From Leptolyngbyaceae cyanobacterium (GTDB lineage: Bacteria > Cyanobacteriota > Cyanobacteriia > Phormidesmidales > Phormidesmidaceae), in assembly GCA_965263355.1 (NCBI GenBank), contig CBDHHL010000032.1:512001-576000 (forward strand): a DNA stretch of 64,000 nt, given 5' to 3'. The position numbers and the translations under genes were made by a program. The notes beneath the pieces are model-generated. The model saw nothing but the letters and a program-made list of their open reading frames with translations. It made no database searches and was not told the origin of the DNA. Of the stretch, positions 3,779 through 47,454 are shown one piece after another (the stretch's first letter is position 1; each line of letters begins with the position of its first letter).

Positions 3779-3783
3779 ATTTC

Positions 3784-5000
3784 CTAAGAGATATGCGCGA
3801 GTGGGTGACCGTTTTGAGTTTTGTACAACAAACTTTCAAGGATAATGGCGTTAGTATTGACATTGATCGCTTTGTTAGGACCAAGGTCTGGGTTCTCGTA
3901 TCGTCCTGATAGATACCCCTTGTGCTCATCGGCAAGGTTTTGCACTGCTTGTCTGAGGGTTTGGCAGTAATCGTTGTCGGGCAAAAGGCTACTCCAGGCA
4001 AAGGCTGCTTTTGCACTTAGAAAACGCAGATCAGGATGAGTGTTTCCTTTTACATCTGTTGCTGGCCAGGTCTGACCATCAGCATAAACACTGTAATAGA
4101 GAAAATAGGGTTTGCGATCCAGGGCATCTTCGTTTACTACAGTTAGTATGCCCGTGTTAGCATATCGATTTGCTTGAACCTGTAGAAGATTTTCAAGCTG
4201 GGGTTGAGTGGTATCAGGCAACCCTACTTCTATCCCTAAAAGTAAGTATGGATCATTGGTTAGATGATTGCTCGCTCCTGAAGAATTGAGATCGCGCTGA
4301 TCCACTATCAGGTCTACCTGATCAACAGTAACCCCCTGGGTTGGCGGGTTATAAGCGCTTTATCAGCTTCAATTCCCCATAGTTTGAAGCCATAGGCGGC
4401 ATATTGTTCATAACCTAATCGCCCTTCTTGCCAATACTGCAAACCATTACGGCCAGCTCCACTACCCCATAGCCAGCCATCTTTTACAGACTTGTTTAAG
4501 TCATAACGGGTCACGATGGTATTGATGCGATCGCGCAGCTCCGGATAATGGGTTTTAAGTGTGTATAAAGCCACCAGATATCGGCCCAAATCTAACGCAA
4601 ACCAGCCACTTGTCCCGTTGGGGTCAGGGCGATTACTTAATGTCCGCATGGTGGCTGTGTTGGTGCTATAGGCTTTATTCGGTAACCCTGTTGTCGGTAA
4701 GGGTAACTGTTCCAGAGTGCGTAACAGAATCGATAGTTTTTCAACCAATTCTGTTTCAGAAATTAGCCCTAGTTGACGAGCAGCATGGATTCCTAAGAGC
4801 GCACTCCCCTGGTCTCACCAGGTGGCCCAAGGCAGTCCATCAACAGCATTCACCAACCCGGTATCAGGATTCCAGTTATTCTCAAAATAGGTCCACGCTC
4901 GACGAGCCGCTACTCGATCCAGAGAATCTGCCATATGTTCCACACTGTCTAAGGGAAGAGACGGGCTAGCTAACTCAGATATCTCAAGAGATGGAGGAGC
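3784..5000 (-). pseudogene. Decayed third DUF3131 domain of the upstream gene
   Basis: DUF3131 motifs (RRAWTYFENN, LPNKAY, EGRLGYEQYA, NTNAIILE) are interrupted by an in-frame TGA at 4815-4817 (TW*DQG) and a frameshift near 4350 that joins ORFs 4314..4748 and 3784..4305. Confidence 0.85.
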
Positions 5001-7948
5001 TTTTTTTTCTCCTCAATTAGGGCAATTTCTTCATTCAAACCTCTAGAAGTTTCAGCGATATTGGTCTCTCCTCCTTTAGCAACCCAGTATGCTCCCTGGT
5101 CATCGGCAACCATTTCGATGGTTGGTTGAGAGCCTTCGGGAAGGCCTAGCCCCAGTTCATCTCCGTCACGAATGGCATCCCACCACGGAGAGTCCATATC
5201 GTCATGGGGATAGATTAGAGGTTGCTGTTGAGTGTTTTTATGCAGTAAGGCTTGGAGAATTAGACTATTAGTGGAGCCCGTAAACCCAATGGCTCTACGA
5301 CCACCGTTTTCGTAAAAGCCCTCGTAATAACCAAGCTGTTGATTATACAAATCTAGAGTTGCTAGCCAAAGGTCTCGACCATAGTCACTATCAGGAAATA
5401 GGGTGTGATAGGCAAAGGCAACAGCTGTACTCACCACTCGAGAATGGGGAATAACGTCTCCATTATCGTCTACAGCAACCCAAGAACGACCATCGGAGAC
5501 AAGTGTACTATGCACCACATAAGGAGCTTCATTCACTAGGGTAGTTCCTGAAGCACTAAATATACCTGTGTGTTCATACCGAGTGGCTTCGGCCTGGTAA
5601 ATCGCGTCTACTAAGGCACTGATTTGGGGATCAAAGCCAAATTCTAGGCCATATAAGATAAAGGGTGTACTGGTGGTATTTAACAGTTCATTTCGACGAC
5701 GTTGCTCTGGCTGAGACCGATTAGTGGGAACTGCTTGTTCTTCTAGCTTAGTGGTGACATAGTTGCCGCCAACGGCTGAGCGAGAAGCATCAAATCCCCA
5801 CAGCTGAAAAGCCCGGGCGGCATATTCTTCATAGCCAAGGATTTCTGCAGGCTTGACTCGGATGCGATCTCGACCCCGATCATCCTGAGCCAAACGAGCA
5901 TTAGCAATACGGCCATTTCTAACCACTCGTAGATAAGACCAGTCCAAAGCTAACTTATCTACAACATCAGTATATTCGGGATGACAGGTTTTAAGTGTGT
6001 GCAAAGATGCCAATAGTCTTCCAATATCCAGGCCAGACCAGCCATCTCCTTGAGGAATGGAATTACCACCATAATCAATAGGTTCTAGAGAAAGGGTGCT
6101 GTAGGAACGATGAGGAAGCTCTCCAGCAAACAGTTCAATCTCCTGTAAAGCTCCTAGTAAATGCCGAATTCGTTCATCAAACTTTTTAGCATTAATCACA
6201 TCCATTGCCCGAGCAGCATGAAGCGATGCCAAATAATCTCCTATCCCCCAAAGAGTGACACCATCTAGATCACTACGATCAGGGACTAACCCTGAAGGAG
6301 TGTGGTTAGCTTCAAAATATTGCCATGCTGTTTTGGCATAACGCATATCTGTAACATTTAAAGGAGACACTACGGATGAGCAAGCCGAGGAGCGAGGTTT
6401 TTCCACCGGCTCAATAGCCGCAATCGTAACCCCCTCATGAGAAGCAGGCGGTGGTGGAGCAGCTGGAGCAGATTCCGCTGGTGGCGGTGGTTCAGGATTA
6501 CTGGCTGTTTCTGGAGGAGCTGCAGGTGGCGGTGGTTCAGCTGGTGGTGGTTCAGGGCTACTAGCTGTTTCTGGGGGTGGAGGTAAATCTCCTGTATTTT
6601 CCCCCGCTGGCACAGTAGGCACTGAAATAGGAGCACTGCCACTCGCCAACATGGGTATATAACCACGAGCTTTATAGTAAAGAATCTCCAAAATCAGTCC
6701 ATTACTATTACCAGTGAGAATATCATTAATAGGGGGCTGAGCATCATATAGGCCCGATTCATAAATACCTGCATAGTAACCCCGCCCAGAATTAGTTGTA
6801 TCCTTTACATGGTCAAAAATCTTGTGGGCATAGGGATCGTCAGGATAAACATAGCGCCATCCAAACGCAGACTTGGCACTTAAAGTACGCAGTTCAGGAT
6901 GCAGCTCATTATTCTCAGTAATAACGGCCCAGGGCACACCATTGGAATAGACGGTACTGTATAAAAAATAAGGAGCTTGATTAATATTGTCTTCGGAAAC
7001 AGCCGTTAACAGCCCAGTATCTTCAAAGCGTCGTTTCTGCGCTTCAAAGACCCTACGAGCATAATCTGCTTGATCTCCCTCCAGACCAAATTCAATAGCA
7101 TCCAGAATGTAAGACTCACTAACTACATAGTTGTTAGCATTTGTTGTCTGAAAATCCCTTGTATCGTACGGGATTTTTAGCCCATAAATATCTACAAAAT
7201 CAAACGGTTCATATGCGATCGCTTGAGGAGCATCAAATCCCCACAGTGCATACCCTCTCGCAGCATACTCCTCGTATCCTAAGCGTCCTTCCTGTACAGG
7301 TAGTGTACTATCGTCTGGCAAGACAGTAGCTCCATAGAGCATCCCATCTCTGACAGACGCCGCAATATTCCAGCTAGCAAGAATGCCAGCCATCCACTCA
7401 GAATACTGGGGATGACACGTACGTAAAATATGGAATGCTGCTAAAAGGCGACCGATATCCAGAGCTGACCAACCAATGCCTCGCTCTAATGGATTGTTAC
7501 CATAGTCCACCATCTCCCCAGTAGCACTGTTATAAACCTTGTTCGGTAGCGTATCTTCAAATAGACGCAGCTCTCCCAAACCAGCAAGAAATTTATTTAA
7601 TCGGCTATCAAACTCTCCCTGCTCAATTAACCCCATCCACCTAGCCGCATTCATAGCTGCCAGATAATTACCTAAGTCCCATAGCGTACCAGATGGATAA
7701 CCACCTGCAGAGTTGGACAATCCAGTGGATTCTTGAACATTATCCACAAAATAATTCCAGGCTGATTGAGCATAGCCCATTTCCTCTGGGGTCAGGGGTT
7801 GTGTAATTGCAGCACATTGCTCTGGACCATTTTGAGCCACAACGGGAGAGATCTGGAAAATAGATATCCATAGGGTAATAAATACTCCTACAAGCCAATA
7901 GGCAATAAATCTGATCCAGAATCGATGGCGAGTTAATAGTATTAACAC
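4970..7948 (-). CDS. Tandem DUF3131 protein (two intact domains, Pro-rich linker), truncated by a frameshift at an A8 tract
   Basis: N-terminal TM/signal segment. Two copies of the AW.YF / TLW / GWS.LDIGR / LGYEEYA motif set separated by a PPPETASSPEPPP linker. Confidence 0.85.
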   Translation of the reverse strand: MLILLTRHRFWIRFIAYWLVGVFITLWISIFQISPVVAQNGPEQCAAITQPLTPEEMGYAQSAWNYFVDNVQESTGLSNSAGGYPSGTLWDLGNYLAAMNAARWMGLIEQGEFDSRLNKFLAGLGELRLFEDTLPNKVYNSATGEMVDYGNNPLERGIGWSALDIGRLLAAFHILRTCHPQYSEWMAGILASWNIAASVRDGMLYGATVLPDDSTLPVQEGRLGYEEYAARGYALWGFDAPQAIAYEPFDFVDIYGLKIPYDTRDFQTTNANNYVVSESYILDAIEFGLEGDQADYARRVFEAQKRRFEDTGLLTAVSEDNINQAPYFLYSTVYSNGVPWAVITENNELHPELRTLSAKSAFGWRYVYPDDPYAHKIFDHVKDTTNSGRGYYAGIYESGLYDAQPPINDILTGNSNGLILEILYYKARGYIPMLASGSAPISVPTVPAGENTGDLPPPPETASSPEPPPAEPPPPAAPPETASNPEPPPPAESAPAAPPPPASHEGVTIAAIEPVEKPRSSACSSVVSPLNVTDMRYAKTAWQYFEANHTPSGLVPDRSDLDGVTLWGIGDYLASLHAARAMDVINAKKFDERIRHLLGALQEIELFAGELPHRSYSTLSLEPIDYGGNSIPQGDGWSGLDIGRLLASLHTLKTCHPEYTDVVDKLALDWSYLRVVRNGRIANARLAQDDRGRDRIRVKPAEILGYEEYAARAFQLWGFDASRSAVGGNYVTTKLEEQAVPTNRSQPEQRRRNELLNTTSTPFILYGLEFGFDPQISALVDAIYQAEATRYEHTGIFSASGTTLVNEAPYVVHSTLVSDGRSWVAVDDNGDVIPHSRVVSTAVAFAYHTLFPDSDYGRDLWLATLDLYNQQLGYYEGFYENGGRRAIGFTGSTNSLILQALLHKNTQQQPLIYPHDDMDSPWWDAIRDGDELGLGLPEGSQPTIEMVADDQGAYWVAKGGETNIAETSRGLNEEIALIEEKKKLLHLLRYLS

Positions 7949-32556: not shown

Positions 32557-32688
32557 AGGACTTTGACTGCAAGCCATTACAGTAATTTGTAATTTCTTTA
32601 GGAGCCTGGTTATGGGTTTGCAAATACCCCTCTAGCCAATGGCAGCTGTCGGCCAACAGTTTATCCAATAGTTGAGCCTGATCACCAC

Positions 32689-33333
32689 TCACATCCAAAC
32701 GCCATAACAGTACTGTTTCCACAGGCGGACGGTCTTATCTTCACTGGCCGATGCTAATTTTTGACCATTCGGTGAAAATGCTAGGGAGGTCACAGGGCCT
32801 TCATGGCCGTTTAGGGTAGTTAGCAAGCCCCGTTGTTTCCCTAGCTGCCAGATTTGAATCTGACTATTTTCTAGCCCTACAGCCAAGTGCTGTCCGTTAG
32901 GGCTAAAGGCTACGCTCAGCACTTGAGTATCTTTGAAATCAAATCGATCAAGCTGGATTCCATCTGTGTGCCAGACCCTGGCGCTGCCATCGGCACTGGC
33001 CGATGCAATCATTTGGCCATCATTACTGACAGTAGTATCCCAGATAATCCCTTCATGGGCATCCAGGCGATTGCGCTCTCGGATCCAAAACACAGCTTGC
33101 TGTAAAGCCGTCACCACCAGGTCGTCAGAAAATGATTGATTGGGATTAACCGCCGCTTCATTTTTGAGTGCAATCCCTGCTTTCATCGCTTCTAAAAGGG
33201 CCTCAAATGGCTGGTGGGAGCCAAACAGAGCTTCAGAGGTTTCTGTCTGGGCCAAAATTGTTTGAGACTCAGCGTCCTGTCTTGCTTCCTGAGCAATTTC
33301 CTTTTGTTTATCAGCGCGTGTTCTTTTTTGGTT
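32689..33333 (-). pseudogene. WD40-repeat protein fragment, 5' end cut by IS66
   Basis: The frame is open up to the IS66 end. Only ~3 WD40 repeats (GH...FSPNG..LASASEDKTVRLW) precede an abrupt stop. Confidence 0.8.
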
Positions 33334-33334
33334 G

Positions 33335-34896
33335 GTAACTACTTAGGCTGTGGCAGAGGTGATTGAGGATTTCCAGAGAACAAATCGACAAGCGCGTCCC
33401 ACACATTGTGCCCTTGTTTTCGTAAAGTAGCCAAATAGCCACGAATACGACAGAACTGTTTAGCCCCATCCTCAGATCGGAAGCATCCCGAGATTTTCTG
33501 TTTCAGTTTCATCATGCGGAGGTCACGCTCGGCTTGATTGTTGTCAAAGGGAATCGAGAAATCGTACATAAAGCCGAGTACCGAGACCTTTTGATTACGT
33601 AAGCGCTTCAGTAGGTTAAGCGGGGGTGGACGTTTCGGTCGTCCCCGTTTTTTGGGTTTTGACGGAGGGGGCATTGGGTTTTGGGCAAACCCCTGCTCTA
33701 AAATGGCGTCATATCGGGACTCAAATGCGGCCAAGTCCTCAATCGATACCCTCTGTTTCCCCTGGGCTTTAAGGCTTTCGAGGTGAGTATGAATCGTCAC
33801 CAATAGCAGACTTAGTTGAAAGGCCCACCACTGACCATAACGTTCTAGCATGTACTGCAGTTCTCTCAAATGATGGGCATTACACAGAAAATGCTCACAG
33901 TCATACAGTGGGTAACTCTTCCAACCATCATGCACGGCCTTACCCTCAACCTCTGGTAACACTCCCATCGCCTCCATGGCCACTTGCCCCCGTTTGGGAT
34001 GGACAAAGTAGTAGGTCAACCCATTGGTTGAGGCTACATGCAACCACCACAGACGCTGATTGACCCGCAGACTGGTCTCATCAAAGTGAACAACCTCACT
34101 GGCCTCTATGGCTTGCTTAATCGTTGCCTCTATCGGCCCTAGATGCTCAAAGCACTGGTCACGGGTGGTGTAAAACGTTCCGTCTGAAACGCTCACGTTC
34201 ATTAAGTCCTTCAACACCTCACAGGCTCGATGCGACGGTAACAGTTGTCCCTCCATCAGGTACACCATCATGGCCTTGAGACGAGGACCATACTGCACAA
34301 CCGTGCTGGCCTCAGCAGGAAAGCTCCCTTGAGTGGACTGACCACATTTCGGGCCACGTTTTACCTCGACTTGATGCTCAGTGACCAATGACTCTATCGG
34401 TCGAATGTCAACTACTTGACGAGCTAACACCTCATCGACAGGGACACTCACTAACGACTCTCCACACCCTGAACACACCGTCACCTCATGGGGAGTCACA
34501 AAATCCGGATCGCTGCTCCATTCAAGGGTATGACCGCGATGACCAGGCTGACCACCCGATGACTTGTCGCTTTTACGCCGTAAGCTCTTAGTGCGTTTCC
34601 CAAAGCCATCACCTGACGGTGGTTTATGACTATTTCGACTGGTTTTGCCTAAGCGGCCTTTGAGCTCACTGACTTGGGTTTCTACCTTGGTGAGACGTTC
34701 CATCAACTGAGTCACCAAACTCACCACAGCCTCTTCTCCTTCCGCATACACTGCACGGATCTCTGCTTCGCTCAGCTGAATTGGTGGGTGTTGCTTGCTC
34801 ACTGGTCACCTACCTGGAACCTGACCATCAGTTAGGATATTTCATTTGCATAACAATCTTTGGAAAATCTCTATTTTTTTAAGCCTAAGTAGTTAC
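33335..34896 (-). mobile_element. IS66-family insertion sequence (transposase-only type)
   Basis: Perfect 15-bp terminal IRs GTAACTACTTAGGCT (33335) / AGCCTAAGTAGTTAC (34896), starting with the IS66-typical GTAA. No 8-bp target duplication. Confidence 0.92.
33339..34802 (-). CDS. tnpC: IS66 family transposase (TnpC)
   Basis: SRNSHKPPSGD, GGQPGH, zinc-finger region, HFDET, VHDG, CNAHHLRE, NNQAERDLR...K.SG.FRS. Confidence 0.93.
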   Translation of the reverse strand: MSKQHPPIQLSEAEIRAVYAEGEEAVVSLVTQLMERLTKVETQVSELKGRLGKTSRNSHKPPSGDGFGKRTKSLRRKSDKSSGGQPGHRGHTLEWSSDPDFVTPHEVTVCSGCGESLVSVPVDEVLARQVVDIRPIESLVTEHQVEVKRGPKCGQSTQGSFPAEASTVVQYGPRLKAMMVYLMEGQLLPSHRACEVLKDLMNVSVSDGTFYTTRDQCFEHLGPIEATIKQAIEASEVVHFDETSLRVNQRLWWLHVASTNGLTYYFVHPKRGQVAMEAMGVLPEVEGKAVHDGWKSYPLYDCEHFLCNAHHLRELQYMLERYGQWWAFQLSLLLVTIHTHLESLKAQGKQRVSIEDLAAFESRYDAILEQGFAQNPMPPPSKPKKRGRPKRPPPLNLLKRLRNQKVSVLGFMYDFSIPFDNNQAERDLRMMKLKQKISGCFRSEDGAKQFCRIRGYLATLRKQGHNVWDALVDLFSGNPQSPLPQPK

Positions 34897-34991
34897 CATC
34901 TACCAAAGTATCGATGAGGTATTAGATGCTATTCATCAAAAAATACTTGCTATTCAAAGTTGACAAGCTATTGTCAACGAATGTCTTGCAC

Positions 34992-35034
34992 GGAGGGGGC
35001 TTCGGGCGTTAGCGCTAGGTGTCGAGCCCCCTCC
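34992..35034. repeat. GC-rich REP-like hairpin
   Basis: Perfect 10-bp stem ggagggggct / agccccctcc. Confidence 0.5.
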
Positions 35035-35200
35035 CTGACGGTGCCCCTTGCTTTACGCTTTAGTGCATGCCCGGAGGGCTTTAGGGGAATCCTTGGTGGA
35101 GTATCTTGAAACTATTGGTTTTCAAGGGTTTCAGCTATTCTCTCTGACCTTATGTATACACCGTAGCCTGGGAGGAACATTGGGGGGCACACACAGCCCA

Positions 35201-35890
35201 CTAAACCAAATCAGGATCTATCCCCAACGCCCTTAACTTCTCCGCCAGTCGGTCCGCCCGCGCCTTTTCTTGTTCTACTCTTTCCTCGGGTGTTCTCAAC
35301 CGTTGCCCAGTCTCGTTATACCAATACAACCATTCTCGCTCTCGGCCCAAGTAAGTTCCTCGTTCTCGGCCCAGACCCAACCCAATTTTAGGCAACCAAA
35401 CCGGATTTCCAGATAATGCTTCATATTCACCATCCACTAACTGATAAATCTCCAGGGGCTGACGCTTACGACGCGGGTGCCCATCTGGCAGATACACCGC
35501 ATAGTAGTCAACCTCCAACTCTGCATACAGTTTTTTCTTGCGTTCGTACTCACCACCATAGGTTTTCGAAACCACTTCTAAAGCCAGTGTTGGAGAAATA
35601 TTATCCTCTTCCCACATCACATAGCTCAGTCGCCCCCCTTCGCCAATGAATCGTTCTACACCCAAACTCAAAAAACCATCCGGCACCACCGCTGGCGCAC
35701 TGGGGTCAAAATAAATCCCCATATCTACCCCAAAAAACCAATCCTCACGCTCTGGCCAGATCATCGCCAAAATCGCTTCGAGTAAATTGGGAATCAAATT
35801 CTGTAACTCATTATCCACAGGCGTATCATCCGAGTCCGGTAACTCAGCAGAGGAGGGTAAGCATTGCTTTGGGTCAAACTTTAAAACCAT
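35201..35890 (-). CDS. Uma2 (DUF820) family putative endonuclease
   Basis: LPSSAELPDSDDTPVDNELQ, PDGF, LEVVS, and a C-terminal 'LAEKLRALGIDPD'. Confidence 0.92.
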   Translation of the reverse strand: MVLKFDPKQCLPSSAELPDSDDTPVDNELQNLIPNLLEAILAMIWPEREDWFFGVDMGIYFDPSAPAVVPDGFLSLGVERFIGEGGRLSYVMWEEDNISPTLALEVVSKTYGGEYERKKKLYAELEVDYYAVYLPDGHPRRKRQPLEIYQLVDGEYEALSGNPVWLPKIGLGLGRERGTYLGREREWLYWYNETGQRLRTPEERVEQEKARADRLAEKLRALGIDPDLV

Positions 35891-35990
35891 GGCTACCGCA
35901 AGCTAGACCAGTACAACTATTCTAGCAGTTGGCTGATGTAGATGATAAATCATGGCCAACTTGAAACCTGTAGATTCTCTGTTTAATCGT

Positions 35991-36435
35991 TTAGCCTCGA
36001 ATAACAACCACATCCCGTTTGCCAGACGTCATCGCTAACTCTGTTGTGGTGCGTTCTGCAATTGGCCCAATATTAGAACGCTGATCAAAAATCACTAGCC
36101 AACCCAAGCTTAACCCTAAACCTGCCAGATAACGATCCAACTGCTCTAATCCCTGACTAATCGGATCCGGTCGCCCCTCTCGCCACACCTTCAACTCCAT
36201 CGCCAGTGTCGTTGTTCCGTATCGTAAACATAGGTCCATCCGGTCTGACCCAATGGCATATTCTCTCTCTAGTGTGCCGCCACCTTCGACTCCGCTCAGG
36301 TCGAGACCATTCACCACTCGATGTAAAAACGCCATCAATACTAGATGGGGCGCAATCTCATGGTATGGAGCACTTTTTAACAAAGGTTGTCCATGTTGTC
36401 GCCAAAAGCTAAGAAACGCCTGTAATAGCGTCGCA
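35991..36435 (-). pseudogene. C-terminal fragment of an AAA-ATPase/PD-(D/E)XK nuclease-like protein
   Basis: 'FLSFWRQHGQPLLKSAPYHEIAPHLVLMAFLHRVVNG...EREYAIGSDRMDL...ELKVWR...QLDRY'. No ATPase part and no proper start upstream. Confidence 0.75.
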
Positions 36436-37580: not shown

Positions 37581-38666
37581 TTAGTCCTCTCTTTTCTTTG
37601 CCAAAATCTCTTCAATCCATACTTGATGCTTTTCATTCTCAAAGCGTTTCAAATAGGCTAGGGCAATTTGTCCCACCGCTGGGTTCTCTTCAATCGCGTC
37701 TAACAGTCTGTGAGTTGTACGTTGTAATATCGCTCGCTCAATCTGTTGATGGGTTGCCACCGGTACCAGGATGGCGGCCAAAACGACCCCGATCCCGGCT
37801 GGAATCATTGGCATCAACCAGCCCAGTAAAAATCCTCCATAGACACCACTGGTTAACCCGGTCAGCAACGCCATGATCAATAACGCCACCTCAAGGGTTG
37901 CTCTCGCCAATAGATGCCCGCCACACCGCCCGCCGTGGTCCAGACCAAAATCCAGACAATCTCCTGCCATTCCTGCCAGCTTTTGAATAAAGGCCGACCG
38001 TCAAGGGCTGAGCGCAACAACATACTAACGGTATTGGCATGGACCGTTACCCCAGCCATGGAAACGGTTTCGCGGGTGGTATAGGGGGTAATCAACACAT
38101 TGTTGACGGTGGAGGCGACGGAGCCGATTAAGACGATGCGATCGCGAATCACCTCCTCAGGCACCTCTCCATTCAGCACCTGGGTGAGAGAAAAAGTGGG
38201 AAACTGCGATCGCACCCTCACATAGTTCAGCATCACCTGATAACCATTGGCATCGGCCCGAATATAGCTGCCCTCATAGGGGCTTAATGGCTTCAGCATG
38301 GCCTGCCCCAAACGCACCGCATTGGCTGGACGGTTAACTGCCTCAAAAGCAATCCCTTCCTGTTCTAAATAGGCCAGCACCAGCTTGGATGAAAAGCTAA
38401 ACAATAGGGTGCCCGGTTCCGGCTCGATGGACAACAACGCCCGTCGGATAGACCCATCATTCTATATCTGCTTGCTCTAGCCGTGCCATGGTTTTGACAC
38501 TCAAGCTAGACTTACCCATCTGGCGGGCCGTCAGAATATAGCAAAACTCCCCCCGACAGACCGCATCATAGAGCGCACTATCCGCCTGCCGTTGCACATA
38601 GCTAAGAGCCTGGGTGGGCAAACTCCCCCCCACTTGATACTGAAATCCAGGCTGTTGTTCCGTCAT
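37581..38666 (-). pseudogene. AAA_35-CHASE2 protein with a large internal deletion and a frameshift
   Basis: N-terminus YQVGGSLP...YVQRQAD...RQMGKSSL (Walker A) abuts mid-CHASE2 'DGSIRRALL' at ~38458. It continues with RDRIVLIG, GVTVHAN and TMs, with a further frameshift near 37890. Confidence 0.8.
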
Positions 38667-38681
38667 ATCTATTGTTCTAAA

Positions 38682-41600
38682 TTAGACGCTTCGATAGCGA
38701 TAGGTCATATACCCCACCGCACCACCGGTAAGCCCCCAAGCCATTAGTGCCGGTACCCAAGGTATCCAAATAGCTGACCACACCATAGAACCATAACAAG
38801 CGATGGTTAAAACGCCGATCGAGCCAGCGCTGGCGAGCAACAATGGCCGCAGTCGCACACATCGCCAAAAGATCAAGCCGCCAACACCAGACCACAGTAA
38901 AATCCAGCCCGATTCTTCCACAAATGACCACCAGCGGATGAGAGGGCGTTCCTCTAAGGCCGCATTGATCAGTTGGCTAATCATTTGTCCATGGACATAA
39001 ACTCCAGGAATAGAATCGCCATAAGGGGTATTGAAATCATCGGAGTTGCGATCGCTAAAATCTGTATAGCCAATTAGGACAATGCGATCGCGAATCAGCG
39101 CAGGATCAACCTTGTCCTGAATGACAGCTTCTAAAGAAACCTGCTGAGCAAAATCCTTTAGCCGAGAACCCCGTCCTTGGGACTCTGGATCGTCATAGGT
39201 GCGAAAGTTGATCAGAGTTTGATAGTCTATCCAACTACTCCAGCCTAGATTTTCGGTCATCGCACTATAGGCAGTGCCGTTACTATCAATATTGGGTACT
39301 ACAACAGTATTAAAGGAAATAACACCGACTGTTTCTGCATCGCTAGTATTTTCATAGGTAATCCCTTCGGTCTCAAGATACGTCTTAGCCAACAACAAAC
39401 TAAAGGACTCCTCAGTGAGACAAGAACTATCGCCACTAACCTGCTGAGTTAAATAGTGACGGCGCACAATGTTGCCACCATCCTGGAGGAAATTAGCAAA
39501 ACCAACCCGAGTCTCGGGCATTTCGTTGCCGATATCGCCAACCTGTTCGTTAGCCTGTTTGTCAGCTGTCTGACAAATACCAAACAAATTATCCATCCAA
39601 GCCAAATCGTTGGCCAAAGCCCCCTTAGCCGGAAAATCACGGAAAAAGTCTAACCCAATCAAACGAGCATCATGGCGATTGAGAACTCTAATAGCCTCTG
39701 AAAGTGCATTCTCAGGAATCGTACCAATACCAGGGGTATAACGACCATCAATCATCTGTTGCCGTAGCCACTCGCCACTGGGGAAATCTACCTTAACAAT
39801 TAGCAGCCGCTCATCCTGTTCAGTTTCATTGGGCCGCCACCGCAGGAACTGGTCATAAGCGCGAGTTTCTAGGGGCTGAAAACCACCCAATAGTCTGATG
39901 ACAGAAACTGCTAAGGCACTGACTACCGTCGCTAATGCCACGGATCGAGCTTTGATTTTCTTAAATGGCAAGGCCTGACTGGCCTGAATATAAGCTTTTT
40001 GCAGGGCAGTAACCGATGGTGTTTTGTCCTGGGCCTGCTCTAACCAACGGACTGATTCTGCCAGGTCATTCCCCCGTAGTAAAAAACTCTCATCCCGCTG
40101 GGCAGCGTCCCATTCAGCGGCTTTGACTAACAGGCGTGTGTGCGATCGCACATGATGCGGATCGCTTTCCAAGGTGCGAAACAACTCGCCAAAGTTCACC
40201 AGAAAGTCACCGTCATGTCGTCGAAAATCACTCCAGGGTAATGACTCGATCCCTTCCGGCAGTGTAGATTTCACCACAGCCCGATAGATCACCGGTAAGA
40301 TACGTTTTTGCTGGGACCGGGCATAGGCTAGCTGATCTAGACAGGCCTGACACCGGACAGCACTGGGCGACAAAATAAACAGAACAGTTTCAGCATTATC
40401 AATCAGCAGGTGAGTATCGTCTAGTCGGTCAGTCTCACCTGCCGAACCGTCCGGTGATAACCAGGCACTTTTGCCTTGAACTAACAACGTTTCATTAAGC
40501 CGATGAGAAAAATCATAATCATCAATATGGTGAATAAAAAAGACCCCCAGGGTTTGATCGGGAGACTGCCTTTGACTGGCATCCAAAAACGCTAGCTGTA
40601 GGGGCAATGCGCCGTTTGGCTGACGATTCTTAGCGGTTTGAGCCCAGGCTAAATAGGTATCCTGTATCTGACGCTGTAGGAGCAAACTCGGGTTTTGTTG
40701 TTGTCGTTCCCACTTAAGTGCTCGCACCAAAAGACGTTTGTGTTGATTATGGTATGAAGCCTCTCTCTGGATCGCCTGCAACAGCTCTGCCATATCTTTT
40801 TCTAAATCGATAGAGGCTTGATTGTCAGTGAGATTAATAAATTGAATCTTACGAATGGTTTCTGGTATCAGTGCTAAATTCACATCCTCCACCAGCATAG
40901 GAATCACCCGTTTGTTTAGGTCTAGCGCTTGATCAATTTCCTGTTGACAATAAACTGAGGCAAGGGATGCCTGGGAAATCAGATAGACAACATTGTCAGC
41001 CTCTTCCAGACCCCGCTGGATAGCAACTTCAAAGTCTTCACCCATACGGATATCCACCGTACTGGTCCAAACTGTCACACCAGCTTGTAGTAAGTGATAG
41101 CGAACAATTTCCTTTGTGGTTAAATCTTCTTCGGCACAGGAGATAAAGACCTGGGTCATGCCACCGTCGGCAGCCTTGATACTTTCTGTAATAAACTCTG
41201 CTTGCACCAGGTTCGGTTTACAGGGCAGTTGCTCCTTAGTAAATTCCGTCTGCAGCCAAGTTTGCGCCCGCAGTCGTTCCTCTCCCATCAGTAAGTAAGT
41301 GGCTTGACGTTGGTGACGCTCCCAGGCGAGGGCACTAATCAAGAGTTCAGTGTGCTGATGGACATAGTCTTCATGCCGATGACACAGCTCTATCAGTCCA
41401 TTAATGGCAGTGTCTAAATCATCGATGCCTGGACGGGCGTTGATCCAATTGATCCGACCAATGTCAGGGGGCATATTGGGGAAACTCGAATGTTTCCCCT
41501 TGGCTTTATAGATTTTCCAATGATCCGGACTGTCTGAAGGATTGCGAGCTTTCCAGGTGGAATAGCCAATTTCTTCCACCTGCAAAATGGGGATAATTCG

Positions 41601-43166
41601 CTTGTTGTATTTCAGTGCCAGGGAAATTTCCTTCGCACAGTAGGGCGAGTTAATGGAGTGAGGGCTGATGATAAATATAAAATTGTGGCTTTTTTCGATG
41701 CCGTCATTGATTTGTGCCTGGAAGTCTACGCCTAGGGGAATATCATTTTGATCAAACCAGACCTGAAACCCGTGGCGATTGAGCTGTTGACACAGATCAG
41801 TGGCAAAGGCTTTACTATCGATGCGACCATAGGAAATAAAAGCATCATAGAACTGATTAATACCTTGACTGGCCTGGATATAGGCGGTGTGCAAATCGGT
41901 GGGAGAACTGCCCGATGGACTGGGTTCCGATAGCCAGGCTTGGGCCATGGCAAAGGCATCGGACCTGAGTAAAAACTTGCGATCGCGATCCTGACGTTCC
42001 CAGGCCAATGCCTTTACCAACAGACGTTTATGTTGGTCCACATAGTCTGCCGAGGTCCTGAGAGTGCGAATAAGCTTATCTATAGCCTGATCAAAGTGAC
42101 TATCAGACGCTAGGGACGAAAAATCAATAAACTGCAACGCGCGCAAGTCGGTGGGCAATGTTGCCATATCCATGGACTGCACCAGCAGTGGAATGATCCG
42201 CTTATGGTAGCGACGAGCATAGGCGCATTCCTGTTGACAATAGCTTGACGCTAACGCATTAGGAGACAGCAATAAAACAATATTGTCGGTTTTTTCAATA
42301 CCCCGATTGATAGCGACCTGAAAGTCTTCAGCGGTGGGAATGTCTACGGTATTTACCCAAACCGTTACCCCCTCACGCATCATGCGCTTACGGACCTTCT
42401 CCTGAATGGCCATATCCTCTTTACTGTAGGATATAAAAACTTGAGTCATCTGGTCATTGGCAGCCTTCAGACTTTCCGTAATAAATTCGCACTGTAAGTC
42501 AGTGGGGATACAGGGCGGTTGTTTGTCTTTAAAGCGAATGTTTAACCATTGTGCTGCCTTCGCCAATTTCTCAGTATCTGTTAACAAATAGTTGGCCTGA
42601 CGCTGCTGACGCTGCCAGCTGAGAGATTGTAGCAACAGCTGTGTATGTTGGTGCACATAGGGGTGATATTGGGTCAGCATGGTTTGTAATCCAGCCATGC
42701 CTGTCTCAAAGTTATCTATCCCCTCACGCAAGTACACCCAGTCAATTTTTCGAATCTCAGGGTGCATATTGGGAAAACTGCTGTGCATTCCCTTTTCTTG
42801 GAGGGCATGCCAGTCGCCTGTATCGGCATCCGGAGTAAGCTGTTGCCAGGTTTCGTAGCTGATTTCCTCAATATGCAACAGTGGAATAATGCGCTTACTA
42901 TGGGTCAGCGCTAGCTCGATTTCCCGAGTACAGTAAGGGGAATTAACAGAATAGGGAGAAATAATAAAGAGAAAATTATCTGCATTCTCAATGGCATCCT
43001 CAATCTGATTTTGATACCCCATCCCCTGAGGACTATGCTCAAAATCAACCCAGACCTCTAACCCTGCCTCAACGAGGTGATCATAGATCTGCTTGGTAAA
43101 CAAACGGCTGTCTGTCCTGCCATAAGAAATAAAGACATCCTGCAGAAAAGAAGGAGGGGGTGTCAT
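38682..43166 (-). CDS. Five-TIR-domain / CHASE2 membrane protein
   Basis: TIR starts DVFISYGR, QVFISYSK, DAFISYGR, QVFISCAE and GVFFIHH. These are followed by a TM, CHASE2 (IGLDFFRD, DGGNIVRR, RDRIVLIG, PGVYVHG) and three C-terminal TMs. Confidence 0.9.
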   Translation of the reverse strand: MTPPPSFLQDVFISYGRTDSRLFTKQIYDHLVEAGLEVWVDFEHSPQGMGYQNQIEDAIENADNFLFIISPYSVNSPYCTREIELALTHSKRIIPLLHIEEISYETWQQLTPDADTGDWHALQEKGMHSSFPNMHPEIRKIDWVYLREGIDNFETGMAGLQTMLTQYHPYVHQHTQLLLQSLSWQRQQRQANYLLTDTEKLAKAAQWLNIRFKDKQPPCIPTDLQCEFITESLKAANDQMTQVFISYSKEDMAIQEKVRKRMMREGVTVWVNTVDIPTAEDFQVAINRGIEKTDNIVLLLSPNALASSYCQQECAYARRYHKRIIPLLVQSMDMATLPTDLRALQFIDFSSLASDSHFDQAIDKLIRTLRTSADYVDQHKRLLVKALAWERQDRDRKFLLRSDAFAMAQAWLSEPSPSGSSPTDLHTAYIQASQGINQFYDAFISYGRIDSKAFATDLCQQLNRHGFQVWFDQNDIPLGVDFQAQINDGIEKSHNFIFIISPHSINSPYCAKEISLALKYNKRIIPILQVEEIGYSTWKARNPSDSPDHWKIYKAKGKHSSFPNMPPDIGRINWINARPGIDDLDTAINGLIELCHRHEDYVHQHTELLISALAWERHQRQATYLLMGEERLRAQTWLQTEFTKEQLPCKPNLVQAEFITESIKAADGGMTQVFISCAEEDLTTKEIVRYHLLQAGVTVWTSTVDIRMGEDFEVAIQRGLEEADNVVYLISQASLASVYCQQEIDQALDLNKRVIPMLVEDVNLALIPETIRKIQFINLTDNQASIDLEKDMAELLQAIQREASYHNQHKRLLVRALKWERQQQNPSLLLQRQIQDTYLAWAQTAKNRQPNGALPLQLAFLDASQRQSPDQTLGVFFIHHIDDYDFSHRLNETLLVQGKSAWLSPDGSAGETDRLDDTHLLIDNAETVLFILSPSAVRCQACLDQLAYARSQQKRILPVIYRAVVKSTLPEGIESLPWSDFRRHDGDFLVNFGELFRTLESDPHHVRSHTRLLVKAAEWDAAQRDESFLLRGNDLAESVRWLEQAQDKTPSVTALQKAYIQASQALPFKKIKARSVALATVVSALAVSVIRLLGGFQPLETRAYDQFLRWRPNETEQDERLLIVKVDFPSGEWLRQQMIDGRYTPGIGTIPENALSEAIRVLNRHDARLIGLDFFRDFPAKGALANDLAWMDNLFGICQTADKQANEQVGDIGNEMPETRVGFANFLQDGGNIVRRHYLTQQVSGDSSCLTEESFSLLLAKTYLETEGITYENTSDAETVGVISFNTVVVPNIDSNGTAYSAMTENLGWSSWIDYQTLINFRTYDDPESQGRGSRLKDFAQQVSLEAVIQDKVDPALIRDRIVLIGYTDFSDRNSDDFNTPYGDSIPGVYVHGQMISQLINAALEERPLIRWWSFVEESGWILLWSGVGGLIFWRCVRLRPLLLASAGSIGVLTIACYGSMVWSAIWIPWVPALMAWGLTGGAVGYMTYRYRSV

Positions 43167-43209
43167 AAATATTAGATGCCTACTAAGGGCCTAGACTGGA
43201 TAATGAGGC

Positions 43210-44403
43210 TCAGAAACCATAGCTCCAACGGGCACGATATCCCCGTGCATCGATATGGGTAAAGACGGATGCGCTTGCCAGTCCGCCGCGATCTCGCCAC
43301 CAAGGTTCTAACTTCCGGTTTACGTCCGGTGGAGAAACACCCTGAACGACAAAATCAACCGCATCTCCAGAAAGATGACGAGAACGACTAGCGCCACCTG
43401 CTCGACGGTTTGAAGCGGGATCACGATACCAGGAGTTAACCGTAATGGGACGTCCTCCCAAATAATCCCGTACTTCTTCCATAACCTCGGCAATTTTGAT
43501 AATACCGTCGACTACAGTGTCATCCACAGGAATACGATTGCCATTTTTTGTTGCTTCGGCCCAGCTAAAGTGACCATCCGTCAGGATCGGATCGCCTAGA
43601 TAAACCGTCCCTAGTTTGGGGACGGTAATGGATCGACCGCGATCCCGTTCAGCGATCTTCGTTTCTGGTTCAACCGGCGGGTCCTGGGGCTTGTTGTCAG
43701 CGTCCGTACCCTCTAACTGAATATGCTGGGCAAAAACATACCAATCAACGCGATCATTTTGCCCCATCAGCATCCCGTCGGGGATCCGGACTTTTACATG
43801 GTTTGACTTGTCCGGTTCATCACTGAGTAACTGCAACCGCGTACCTGCACTGACTAATATTTTGTCAGTGTCCGCCAGTTGAAAGCTCTGTTTTGGACTC
43901 ACCTTAAATAAGGTATCTGCCAATACAAGCATCTCGGTGGACCCTTTGGGATTACCGAGATCAATCAACTGCTGCGACTGCATATAGCGCATAATAGCTG
44001 CCGCACCGATGCGAGGCGTTTTTGGCTTGGCTATGTTAGTGCCCCCCCAAACCCAAGTAGACGCTTGCCCAGCACCGTCTCTAAACCCGTGCCATAGGTC
44101 AACGCCCCACAACAGCGCCCCTAGGGTGCGGGTCTTCGCCTGATGGAATTTTTTGGCAATCAGAGCATCGATTACCTGACGTTCAAACTGAGCGGGCTCA
44201 CGAAAGTTCCACTCGCTATAGTGCAAAATTCCCACAAACCACCAGGGCACACTAGTGGCTTTTTCCACAGCTTCGTAGTGCGATCGCAATTGCACCATGC
44301 GACCCACAATTCCCCTCACGGTAGGCTCCGCATCTGGCAGCAGCTCACAACCCTCAAATGCTGACTTATACTCTGGCTCAAGTTTTTTTAGAGTCAAATC
44401 CAT
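43210..44403 (-). CDS. Peptidase M15 (Zn D-Ala-D-Ala carboxypeptidase-like) with N-terminal lysozyme-like region
   Basis: C-terminal SWYRDP..NR..GGASRSRHLSGDAVDF...FTHIDARG. N-terminal YEAVEKATSVPWWFVGILHYSE resembles lysozyme-family proteins. Confidence 0.85.
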   Translation of the reverse strand: MDLTLKKLEPEYKSAFEGCELLPDAEPTVRGIVGRMVQLRSHYEAVEKATSVPWWFVGILHYSEWNFREPAQFERQVIDALIAKKFHQAKTRTLGALLWGVDLWHGFRDGAGQASTWVWGGTNIAKPKTPRIGAAAIMRYMQSQQLIDLGNPKGSTEMLVLADTLFKVSPKQSFQLADTDKILVSAGTRLQLLSDEPDKSNHVKVRIPDGMLMGQNDRVDWYVFAQHIQLEGTDADNKPQDPPVEPETKIAERDRGRSITVPKLGTVYLGDPILTDGHFSWAEATKNGNRIPVDDTVVDGIIKIAEVMEEVRDYLGGRPITVNSWYRDPASNRRAGGASRSRHLSGDAVDFVVQGVSPPDVNRKLEPWWRDRGGLASASVFTHIDARGYRARWSYGF

Positions 44404-44807
44404 GGAGCTAGTAGATGAAACAACAGAGATAAATAGCAGCCAAGAGAACTTAAATAGAATCCACAGGAGGTGCTACAAGCAATAAGCAATTGAATACCAG
44501 CAATCTCACTGACAACAACCAACGCTAAGACTCATTTAATTACCTACATCAGCCCATACCTTTAGCAATAGTTACAAAGCCTAGCCAATGCAATGAACCG
44601 ATAACATTTATAGAAAATTTATGCTAGCTCAAATAATAATGAAGAATTTATACTTTAGCGATGGTGCCCAGATAAAACCAACAAGATAAATTGTTCGTAA
44701 GTTAATTTTTATAAATCTAAGAGTTAGTTTACAAAGCTAAAGCGTGTACCTTTGAGTTGCGTTTTAGCTAAAAAGCTTGTCCTTGACTCGCATCTAATCA
44801 AAATAAA

Positions 44808-46337
44808 ATGGCCAAGAAAAGTTCTTACAACGATTATCTTAAGCAAACCCTAGGAGGGTTAATTGATAGGCTTGATATTTCAGAGTTACGTAAGGAATTT
44901 CTCAAAAATCGCTGGCTAGATCAGGTGATGTGGCTAGAAGGAAAGGCCACTAAAGAGCGGGATAGACACTACAAGCTGCGTTTGGTAACTATCATTGGCG
45001 GTGTGATTGTTCCAGTCATGGTAGGCCTAAACCTTGAAGGTCCGCTCGAAAAGCAGCTTAAGTATGCCGCCCTTGGGCTAAGTACAATAGTGGCTATTTC
45101 CGCTGCTGTCGAAGAATTCTTTTTGCCGAGTGAGAAGTACCGCAATTATCGTAGTACGGCAGAAAGCATGAAAATTGAGGGTTGGCAGTTTATGCAATTG
45201 GCAGGCCCTTATCGTAAATTCAAGGTTCATTCAGACGCCTATAAGATATTTGCCCAACGGGTTGAAGCCTATATTCAAAAAGATGTAGAAGGGTTCATTG
45301 CCCGTTTAGAAGAGAAACAGGAGGAAAGTAAGGAGGACGCTGATGAGGCGGCCAATAACGTTGAACAGACCCTTATGAGTCTCAATCAACAGTTAGAGGA
45401 AGAACGGGCGCAGCGTTTGGAGTTAGAGCGTGCACGTTTGGCTGAACAACAAGCTAGCAGTCCATCACCGACCCTGGATGATGGAGGTGGTTATTCTGGT
45501 TCCCTGATGGATATTCAGATGCCTCCATCTACTGATGAGGGAGATTTTGAGGAAAGCTTACCCCAGGAAAGCCGCCTGACTGAACCGTTGGCTGGTGTGC
45601 AGTCCCTGATGTCATCACAACCAACGGCTAGCCGAACCCGTGAAGTTTCCAGTAGAACAATTAAGACATCTAGTAGCCTCCCTCCCTTAGGTCAATATGC
45701 CCTGGAATGGGAGGAAACGGTTGACTTTAACGCGCTAAAAACAATTTTGACTGAGCAGAATAGTACTGGCACCCAGACCAATGGAGGGGCTAGTGGCGCT
45801 GAACCTCAGTTAACTACACCTGATGAAGTTTCTCAAATCTTGGAATGTCCGTTAGAAGACTGCAAAGTCTATCTGCCAGGCGTTTTACTGGCGATGCAAA
45901 AGTACGACATCTATGACAAGTCCGTATTGATTGGTCTATTAGCCACCATTCGCATTGAGACTGGCGGTTTCAAACCGGTCCATGAATGGGGAGGAGAAAG
46001 CTACTGGAAACGCTACGAAGATCGAGCAGATTTGGGTAATGTTAACCCTGGTGATGGCGTGAAATACCATGGCCGTGGCTACATTCAGCTTACAGGACGG
46101 GCTAATTACCATGACTATGGTAAGAAGCTGGGTGTGGATCTTGAAAATAATCCAGATTTAGCCATGGATCCTGAAATATCAGCTCAAGTTCTGGCCTGCT
46201 ACTTCAAAGAGCGTGGTGTGGCAACGGCGGCCCGTGAAAACGATTGGCGACGCGTACGCAAGTTAGTTAATGGTGGTTACCACGGCTGGGATGTGTTTTC
46301 AAGATATGTTGAGCGGGCTCAGGCTCGATTGGCATAA
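44808..46337 (+). CDS. SLATT (DUF4231) 2TM domain fused to a GH19 lysozyme/chitinase domain
   Basis: N-terminal RWLDQV.W...TM...TM...YRSTAESMKIEGWQFMQLAGPY. Coiled coil and low-complexity linker. C-terminal IETGG..VHE, YHGRGYIQLTGRANY, VNGG. Confidence 0.85.
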   Translation: MAKKSSYNDYLKQTLGGLIDRLDISELRKEFLKNRWLDQVMWLEGKATKERDRHYKLRLVTIIGGVIVPVMVGLNLEGPLEKQLKYAALGLSTIVAISAAVEEFFLPSEKYRNYRSTAESMKIEGWQFMQLAGPYRKFKVHSDAYKIFAQRVEAYIQKDVEGFIARLEEKQEESKEDADEAANNVEQTLMSLNQQLEEERAQRLELERARLAEQQASSPSPTLDDGGGYSGSLMDIQMPPSTDEGDFEESLPQESRLTEPLAGVQSLMSSQPTASRTREVSSRTIKTSSSLPPLGQYALEWEETVDFNALKTILTEQNSTGTQTNGGASGAEPQLTTPDEVSQILECPLEDCKVYLPGVLLAMQKYDIYDKSVLIGLLATIRIETGGFKPVHEWGGESYWKRYEDRADLGNVNPGDGVKYHGRGYIQLTGRANYHDYGKKLGVDLENNPDLAMDPEISAQVLACYFKERGVATAARENDWRRVRKLVNGGYHGWDVFSRYVERAQARLA

Positions 46338-46662
46338 ACTTGACATAAATCCAAGAAGATGTTATTAGCCAAGATGTTACGAGGCCCGAGTTTGATTGCA
46401 TCAATAACTAATGCTCTAAAGGCAACGATAGATTATTAGTCAAATGCGAGCCAGGCATAGCAACTGCATAGTGCTTGTGGTGCTTGTAACGGTATTGGAT
46501 TCTATGATTTTGTGCGTATACTTTGTTCACACCCCTAACTAAAATTAGATCGCTTTATCTATAAATTTGGACGGATTCTACAGGATAAGGGTATTTTGGG
46601 GTGTAAGTAAGTTAAACAATCCACCCAGACCTGTCGGTCACCTTTGTTAAGAGAGATACGAA

Positions 46663-47454
46663 ATGCCCAAAACTTCAGCTGACGAACTTGTTGAACATAG
46701 GTTTTCTAATGGGCAGCTGGCCAAAATACTCAAGGTGGCTGACAGTACTGGTTATAAAAAAGCATTATCAATTGTTGGCTTACAGGGGCCGACACCTACA
46801 TTGTTGGTGATTGGTGGAGCTAGCAATATGACGCCTGAAAGTCAGGCAAAGCTAATTCAATTCTTTAATAATGCATTAGCAATCTTGTCAGAAAGATTAG
46901 GGATTACCGTATTAGACGGTGGCACTGATGCTGGGGTGATCCATATGATGGGGCAAGCGCGTTATCACGTCAGCGGTCAGTTTAATCTTGTTGGAGTTGC
47001 CCCGCTAAATAGGGTTATTTTTCCAGTTGATGAGATGCCTTTACCAGCCTCGGATGATGAAAACTATCCTCCAGTAGAATTGGAACCCCATCACACCCAC
47101 TTTTTTCTAGTTCCTGGTGAAAACTGGGGTAGTGAGTCGCGATGGCTAGCAAGATTTTCGTCAGTTTTGGCCGGACATTTTCCCTCCATGACTTTACTAA
47201 TTAATGGAGGTCAGGTATCTCTCAAGGACTTGAAGCTCAATTTAGAGTTTGGTAGGCAAGTTACGATCATCGCTGGCAGTGGTCGTTTAGCAGATGCGGT
47301 GGCCGATACTATTAGCGGTGTAGCCCCCTCTGAAGATAAAACGATCCAGCATTTAGTAAACACCTATTATCCCAGCCAGTTGTCGGTCTTTAATCTCCTA
47401 TCAAGTTCATTAGATGACTTAAAGGCTCAATTGGACATCTATTTTGATTGCTAA
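46663..47454 (+). CDS. SLOG superfamily protein, TRPM-like (LSDAT) type
   Basis: VIGGA, VLDGGTDAGVIHMMG, LEPHHTHFFLVPG..WGSE, INGG, AGSGRLAD motifs. Confidence 0.85.
   Translation: MPKTSADELVEHRFSNGQLAKILKVADSTGYKKALSIVGLQGPTPTLLVIGGASNMTPESQAKLIQFFNNALAILSERLGITVLDGGTDAGVIHMMGQARYHVSGQFNLVGVAPLNRVIFPVDEMPLPASDDENYPPVELEPHHTHFFLVPGENWGSESRWLARFSSVLAGHFPSMTLLINGGQVSLKDLKLNLEFGRQVTIIAGSGRLADAVADTISGVAPSEDKTIQHLVNTYYPSQLSVFNLLSSSLDDLKAQLDIYFDC

Follow-up and report, generated by a model that had tools for sequence, protein, structure and literature searches.

A stretch of 64,000 nucleotides from a Leptolyngbyaceae cyanobacterium (assembly GCA_965263355.1, contig CBDHHL010000032.1, positions 512,001 to 576,000), here called the window, contains a locus of four genes arranged around one divergent intergenic region. 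The four open reading frames (ORFs) are intact at the coordinates and on the strands given in Table 1, and ORF calls and Pfam agree on the layout that an earlier sequence-only reading had described. One arm encodes a receptor-like protein with five TIR domains, a transmembrane segment (TM) and a CHASE2 domain, together with a wall hydrolase made of lysozyme-like, SH3b and M15 domains. The other arm encodes a SLATT membrane protein that continues through a linker into a GH19 domain, and a TRPM2-type SLOG protein. Profile hidden Markov models match TIR_2 (five times), CHASE2, Peptidase_M15_3, DUF4231/SLATT_3, GH19 and LSDAT_prok, the domains which that reading had named, and catalytic residues are retained in four of the TIR domains, in GH19 and in M15. 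On balance, the locus probably encodes a receptor-triggered and nucleotide-signalled form of self-lysis, similar to Thoeris type VII, in which a pore releases a tethered endolysin that lyses the cell and cuts the filament. Judging from the sequences, the locus differs from known TIR-SLATT signalling in that a TIR array with an extracellular sensor is joined by a free-standing sensor of the TRPM2 type and by a pore whose wall-hydrolase cargo can be exchanged.

The TIR-CHASE2 Receptor and the SLOG Sensor

The TIR domains of the receptor-like protein follow the order A-B-A-B-C, and most homologues consist of the three-domain unit A-B-C. A hydropathy scan places a TM at residues 1076-1094, before CHASE2 (aa 1084-1431), and a second hydrophobic segment at 1450-1468; since the first of these lies between the TIR domains and CHASE2, the former should be cytoplasmic and the latter periplasmic. 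The first four TIR domains carry a glutamate at the catalytic position (E82, E313, E513 and E743), and E513 aligns with the Glu of structure 7uxr, but the fifth has Gln945 at this position, which corrects the earlier reading. Among 17 five-TIR CHASE2 proteins, the window protein included, these glutamates are kept in 17, 16, 17 and 15 cases, respectively, and the glutamine of TIR5 in 13. The CHASE2 sensor is present as proposed, but it is not an obligatory partner of the array, as a WD40 domain can replace it.

The SLOG protein belongs to the LSDAT family (PF18171, E 1e-54). Its model is closest in fold to the MHR1/2 region of TRPM2 (Z 23.7, root-mean-square deviation 3.0, 254 residues aligned to 8sr7), with a Z of only 12.4 against the SLOG of ThsA, and both profile and fold thus bear out its description as TRPM-type. 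Human TRPM2 contacts ADP-ribose (ADPR) through Y295, R302 and R358, according to the available text of PMC6759353. In the alignment to human TRPM2 these positions correspond to W155, L162 and R208, of which W155 and R208 are invariant in all 57 SLOG sequences compared. The sensor is homologous to that of the TRPM2 channel, and of the three ADPR contacts just named, two are kept or exchanged conservatively. Unlike in the channel, the sensor is encoded apart from the membrane part, and SLATT has no kinship with the TRP pore.

The SLATT-GH19 Protein and the Second Wall Hydrolase

The membrane protein scores well above the cut-off of the NCBIfam model SLATT_1 (NF033634; 99.8 vs 41). A helical stretch follows its two TMs (59-77 and 88-106), which are flanked by basic residues; this charge pattern predicts an N-in/C-in topology. 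With both ends of SLATT inside, GH19 would hang in the cytoplasm on its linker, a low-complexity segment of 119 aa. The GH19 domain (aa 335-509) keeps its catalytic pair, E384 and E393, in 36 of 36 sequences and is of the endolysin class, as had been anticipated: its match to the PWe2 endolysin (E 5e-23) is far stronger than that to the best chitinase (1.5e-8), and it also matches the endolysin family phrog_181. A role as an anti-chytrid chitinase was considered and rejected, the domain being nearer to endolysins and interchangeable with GH24 and with peptidases. A SLATT profile search of solved structures gives no true relative, the matches being repeat-protein artefacts.

The second hydrolase combines a lysozyme-like fold (aa 1-148, with E64), an SH3b domain (aa 152-234) and an M15 zinc peptidase whose ligands H343, D350 and H383 are kept in 23 of 23 sequences; the hydropathy scan finds no hydrophobic segment in it. 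An AlphaFold model of the N-terminal part (pLDDT 88) gives modest Z scores against lytic transglycosylases (MltF 7.1, MltE 6.8), and model comparison places an SH3b fold after it, but the N-terminal domain has no Pfam match, and Foldseek gives no match of this model in the PDB at E 0.001. Its Atlas matches are clusters without names, mostly phage.

Across 14 orthologues, identity is 89% for GH19 and 88% for M15, next to 92% for carB and 77% for aroE. The TIR, CHASE2, SLATT and SLOG domains are 73-81% identical, and the linker 53%. The hydrolases are under constraint, with nothing that resembles arms-race divergence.

These features bear on an explanation in which SLATT would be a regulated holin that releases hydrolases or other cargo outward, against attacking bacteria. 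Holin-dependent secretion of peptidoglycan hydrolases is an established process, and the swappable cargo, the wall-binding SH3b domains, the lack of signal peptides and the separately encoded, soluble second hydrolase would all suit such a weapon. Nevertheless, we regard it as very unlikely: GH19 is covalently joined to a membrane protein, catalytic domains as highly conserved as these would suit a substrate that does not change (self), and no immunity gene is recognised in the Leptothoe loci.

Fusions and Exchange of the Wall-Directed Cargo

The associations of SLOG and of M15 with SLATT also exist as natural fusions. SLOG and SLATT are joined in one protein in seven longer SLOG homologues. 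A scan for cargo covered the 46 proteins of at least 275 aa among the best 150 SLATT representatives: six are SLOG-SLATT, one is ParA-SLATT, 17 have a wall-directed C-terminus and 22 have no recognised extra domain. The 17 comprise GH19 (4), GH24 (2), C39-like (1), C39 with GH19 (2), C39 with GH24 (1), M15 (1), CHAP/NlpC-like (4, called from a Cys-His motif together with an Atlas lead of 0.90) and SH3b only (2). Recognised C-terminal cargo is thus always a wall hydrolase or a wall-binding domain. The M15 case (P0188, SLATT-SH3b-M15) has an M15 domain 66% identical to that of the window and so connects the M15 gene with SLATT.

In a quick tree of 86 SLATT sequences, a starred clade of 42 contains the GH19 forms together with the Nostocales GH24 forms, and another clade contains the C39/SH3b forms. 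Because these forms lie in separate clades, cargo has probably been gained or swapped more than once.

Synteny and Co-occurrence

The neighbourhood of SLATT was first surveyed in a query-biased set of 70 loci, many of them cut by contig ends. SLOG is present in 39 of them, a TIR array in 34 (22 with CHASE2, 12 otherwise), SLATT-GH19 in 34, SLATT-GH24 in 12, and the second hydrolase family in 34. All four genes occur in the window order in 14 Leptothoe-clade loci, and likewise, with a split TIR-CHASE2 gene, in a further one (L069). Four Nostocales loci (L026, L027, L028 and L033) carry them in another order, with GH24 instead of GH19 and an endolysin-like phrog_33083 domain instead of M15; these four are seen in the gene maps, and the BLAST-filter tally caught two of them. 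TIR-WD40 genes lie beside SLATT in Moorena, Pleurocapsales and Microcystis loci, and on its other side in L132. The linkage is thus kept through gene reordering and domain swaps, which speaks for the self-lysis proposed below.

An unbiased sample of 301 genomes across the cyanobacterial phylum gives raw counts that ignore relatedness and genome completeness. SLATT is found in 23 genomes, SLOG in 23, and both in 21, which together with the fusions substantiates the pairing of the two. Nine of the ten genomes with a TIR array have SLATT, and nine have SLOG. The array lies within 10 kb of SLATT in five of the nine; leaving out genome G001, the figure is four of eight, vs about 0.09 expected, and the clustering of TIR arrays with SLATT exceeds chance. 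Among 24 SLATT loci fetched from this sample, SLOG is present in 17 and a BLAST-detected wall hydrolase in three; L116 additionally carries SH3b and CHAP-like cargo. In 120 genomes of the family of G001, the SLATT domain is found in 41 (46 matches minus five GH19-only rows), a TIR array in 48, and both in 35. The conserved core is SLOG plus SLATT, to which some lineages have added TIR arrays and hydrolases. The four genes had been taken for a unit; they do recur together in the Leptothoe-clade and Nostocales loci, but the set is not fixed.

This distribution could also mean that two adjacent modules are only loosely linked, one being a SLOG-SLATT(-hydrolase) sensor of NAD/ADPR status (NAD, nicotinamide adenine dinucleotide) and the other a TIR-CHASE2 output of TpsAB/CHAT/CHASE2/DUF928 envelope signalling. 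Stand-alone SLOG-SLATT pairs lie beside, and convergent to, pncB-nadD-nrtR(NUDIX)-nadE in three of the 24 loci (L105-L107), and NAD(P)HX-repair (YjeF) genes beside two others (L118 and L120), so that NAD salvage or repair neighbours occur in five of 24 in all. TIR-CHASE2 is also found within a TpsAB/CHAT/DUF928 cassette away from SLATT, with DUF928 beside it in L129, L133 and L135, and in three loci (L025, L031 and L032) the fetched DNA has SLOG-SLATT-GH24 together with TPS genes but no TIR-CHASE2. On the other hand, the TIR array remains a neighbour of SLATT whichever sensor it carries and across at least five gene orders, all ten of the TIR-array genomes in the phylum sample have SLATT or SLOG, and in genome G031 a SLOG gene stands beside a patatin gene and a TIR array. 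We therefore rate two independent modules as unlikely.

A different use of the same circuit would be developmental, the cue leading to sacrificial death or local wall cutting that fragments the filament, as in hormogonia or necridia. The named organisms with lysozyme cargo in the query-biased set are filamentous, and the loci of Microcystis, Cyanothece, Xenococcus and Pleurocapsa carry a cargo-less SLATT. Stable vertical inheritance and strongly conserved hydrolases are in keeping with such a function. However, the cargo form is patchy (about four of the 23 SLATT genomes of the phylum sample), which rules it out as the general machinery of fragmentation. In the quick tree, moreover, Leptolyngbya-type sequences surround the Nostocales GH24 form, which is separated from the remaining stand-alone SLATTs, a hint of transfer. 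This developmental role appears distinctly improbable, albeit less so than the outward weapon.

Several further arrangements were noticed around these genes. A conserved ORF of about 110 aa with no recognised family lies between SLATT-GH24 and the second hydrolase in L031 (11772-12107) and in 10 other Nostocales loci. In L017 (11833-15075) and 14 similar loci, a protein with SLATT_1, a middle domain, TPR-S and a C-terminal domain without Pfam match lies beside SLATT; some of its domains are presumably DRHyd-like and SLOG-like, and it is possibly an alternative signal maker. L123 (6985-11597, G031) carries SLOG, a patatin phospholipase and a TIR-array-WD40 gene in a row, with SLATT absent, and is best read as the same signal module equipped with another effector. 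A second locus of G001 (L125, 6262-11222) has a two-TIR gene divergent from SLOG and from a SLATT_1-like gene broken by transposase-like ORFs. Finally, L126 (6007-7980, G152) is a collapsed locus that apparently arose by deletion, with DUF928, a SLATT-CHASE2 chimera and part of a SLOG gene.

Relation to Known Systems

Burroughs et al. reportedly predicted pairs of SLOG(LSDAT) and SLATT in 2015, as citing passages and Pfam names indicate, and the same core pair is found here. SLATT has also been predicted, in the available text of PMC7159879 and PMC9503650, to be a nucleotide-responsive pore, and a link between LSDAT and TRPM is cited in that of PMC13143021. The nearest described system is Thoeris type VII, formed by the TIR protein ThsB and the SLATT protein ThsH, which uses canonical cyclic ADPR (cADPR), has been verified experimentally and is reported in Cyanobacteriota, according to the main text of Yirmiya et al. 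(bioRxiv 10.64898/2025.12.03.692087). Type I Thoeris, previously put forward as the model, is more distant. As in type VII, a TIR protein with the catalytic Glu is encoded near a two-TM SLATT effector, here with one gene between them and in divergent orientation. Unlike the compact two-gene operon of type VII, the locus has four genes in two divergent arms, with a multi-TIR membrane receptor bearing an extracellular CHASE2 (or WD40) sensor, a separate TRPM-type SLOG, and hydrolases that are either neighbours of SLATT or fused with it. The terms lysozyme, CHASE, TRPM, peptidoglycan, DUF4231 and WD40 are absent from the main text of that preprint.

Thoeris types I and III likewise join TIR and SLOG, and type III has several TIR proteins, but they use other SLOG families, STALD and SMF/DprA, respectively (available text of PMC13276650). 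Unlike the SIR2-SLOG(STALD) effector of type I, the LSDAT SLOG stands alone here, with no SIR2; unlike type III with its SMF/DprA SLOG and ThcB, the SLOG is LSDAT, and the ThcB4 score is 136 vs a cut-off of 220. For the receptor, a parallel is provided by the Sinorhizobium CHASE2 cyclases CyaD1, CyaD2 and CyaK, which together with the outer-membrane barrel NsrA sense a foreign protein (available text of PMC13001267). There too a CHASE2 receptor makes a messenger, in that case a nucleotide, and the relatives of the present locus have TpsB/TpsA neighbours; here, by contrast, an N-terminal TIR array instead of a cyclase forms the output, and a pore and hydrolases are coupled to it.

In phage lysis by holin and endolysin, the endolysin reaches the wall after the membrane has been breached. 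The locus shares with it a small two-TM protein and signal-less enzymes of the endolysin class. In contrast to the phage arrangement, pore and endolysin are one polypeptide here, host-encoded and tied to nucleotide sensors.

The claim that the combination is undescribed needs restriction, as TIR with SLATT is already known from type VII; the set of TIR-CHASE2, SLOG and SLATT-hydrolase was not found described. No SLATT-hydrolase fusion and no TIR-CHASE2/SLOG/SLATT system appears in the literature searched, most subscription papers and the bioRxiv supplements being outside its reach, and the accessible parts of PMC5587647, PMC8195603, PMC2853523 and bioRxiv 10.64898/2026.10.19.760177 do not describe the combination.

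Proposed Mechanism

In the self-lysis that we favour, CHASE2 would sense an envelope or extracellular cue, probably via the TpsB/TpsA/TPR module of relatives. The TIR array, in which the catalytic Glu is observed, would then convert NAD+ to an ADPR derivative, such as ADPR or a cADPR isomer. The TRPM2-like SLOG, for which site residues and natural fusions are observed, would bind this product and, with or on SLATT, open a membrane lesion. According to the predicted topology, the cytoplasm-tethered GH19 and the signal-less second enzyme would reach the peptidoglycan only after the membrane is breached. The cell would burst and the filament be cut, isolating the infected or attacked cell. The same effector may also receive input from other TIR-array receptors of this genome, whether their sensor is CHASE2 or WD40. 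More generally, and with considerably less assurance, filamentous cyanobacteria may possess a Toll-like programmed lysis, in which a surface receptor with a TIR array produces an ADPR-type messenger and a free TRPM2-like sensor gates a SLATT pore with a swappable endolysin of its own. It would amount to a host-encoded, signal-gated holin-endolysin in one chain, by which a cell is sacrificed and the filament severed.

A number of observations weigh against this self-lysis. At the sensor, one of the three ADPR contacts is lost, R302 of TRPM2 being replaced by Leu162. TIR arrays occur in multiple copies, the majority of them distant from SLATT and often with DUF928, CHAT or TpsB. In the phylum sample, 14 of the 23 SLATT genomes give no TIR-array match at E 1e-40, only four of the 24 fetched loci (about 10 kb) have a TIR array, the full-length lysozyme-like-SH3b protein is found in G001 only, and the counts are raw, as said above. 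The window strain is without the neighbouring TPR and TpsA-CHAT genes that relatives have. PADLOC gives generic TIR matches only for the four proteins. Moreover, in the Leptothoe-clade loci the genes occupy a stable chromosomal site beside carB and rpsU, and this site and the housekeeping-like divergence of 73-81% are unlike those of a typical defence island.

Surroundings of the Locus in the Window

The closest relatives of the locus are from filamentous cyanobacteria of the Leptothoe/Adonisia type, at 67-81% identity. The alignment of their orthologues reveals a conserved block in the divergent intergenic region (Table 1), which is probably the shared promoter or operator of the two arms; a scan of this region for sigma-70 promoters and terminators gives no signal above shuffled sequences.

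Table 1. Positions in the window of the four genes, the conserved intergenic block and the decayed neighbours.
Feature	Position	Strand	Basis
5xTIR-CHASE2 receptor-like protein, 1494 aa	38682..43166	-	Pfam TIR_2 x5 E 7e-109, CHASE2 E 4e-48
Lysozyme-like-SH3b-M15 wall hydrolase, 397 aa	43210..44403	-	Pfam Peptidase_M15_3 E 4e-18
SLATT-GH19	44808..46337	+	Pfam DUF4231/SLATT_3 plus GH19
Stand-alone LSDAT SLOG	46663..47454	+	Pfam LSDAT_prok E 1e-54
Conserved block, divergent intergenic region	44600..44765	.	Alignment of 10 sequences, Leptothoe-clade orthologues
Frameshifted AAA_35-CHASE2 pseudogene remnant	37581..38666	-	Pfam; relatives have TPR + TpsA-CHAT genes there
WD40 remnant of second TIR-array-WD40 gene	32576..33273	-	Intact copy at same position in genome G001

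Decayed genes lie directly beside the locus, as had been noted: the frameshifted AAA_35-CHASE2 pseudogene begins 15 bp past the TIR gene, and the WD40 remnant lies farther out. After TIR-CHASE2, the Leptothoe relatives carry TPR, TpsA-CHAT and then another TIR array gene, this one with WD40, a stretch reduced in the window to these two remnants. Decay of the four genes themselves was considered in view of such neighbours and rejected, as their lengths and catalytic residues match those of the orthologues. An origin as a prophage or lysis cassette was likewise rejected: no phage genes are recognised among the neighbouring ORFs, and none of 33 candidate stretches in viral contigs was confirmed as a relative of the SLATT protein.

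The decayed stretch also holds, at 33339-36383, a transposase-like ORF (presumably IS66), a Uma2 gene (Pfam) and a nuclease-like remnant. Farther away, several related minus-strand ORFs with a common uncharacterised domain occupy 2450-7948 (among them one of 992 aa, one of 442 aa and, at 3784-4748, a copy in fragments), and a glycine/aspartate-rich repeat ORF at 320-1648 is similar, by eye, to RTX-type calcium-binding repeats.

Implications

Known effectors of the Thoeris type deplete metabolites, cleave proteins or breach membranes, and none was found described as wall-destroying. Furthermore, the known bacterial TIR signal makers sense phage inside the cell, whereas the sensor predicted here is extracellular. 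If the proposed mechanism is true, the system would present a case of many dispersed TIR receptors converging on a single effector, and a simple bacterial model for the sensing of ADPR by the MHR1/2 region of TRPM2. It would also make the sacrificial death of cells and the breakage of filaments in cyanobacteria accessible to genetics.

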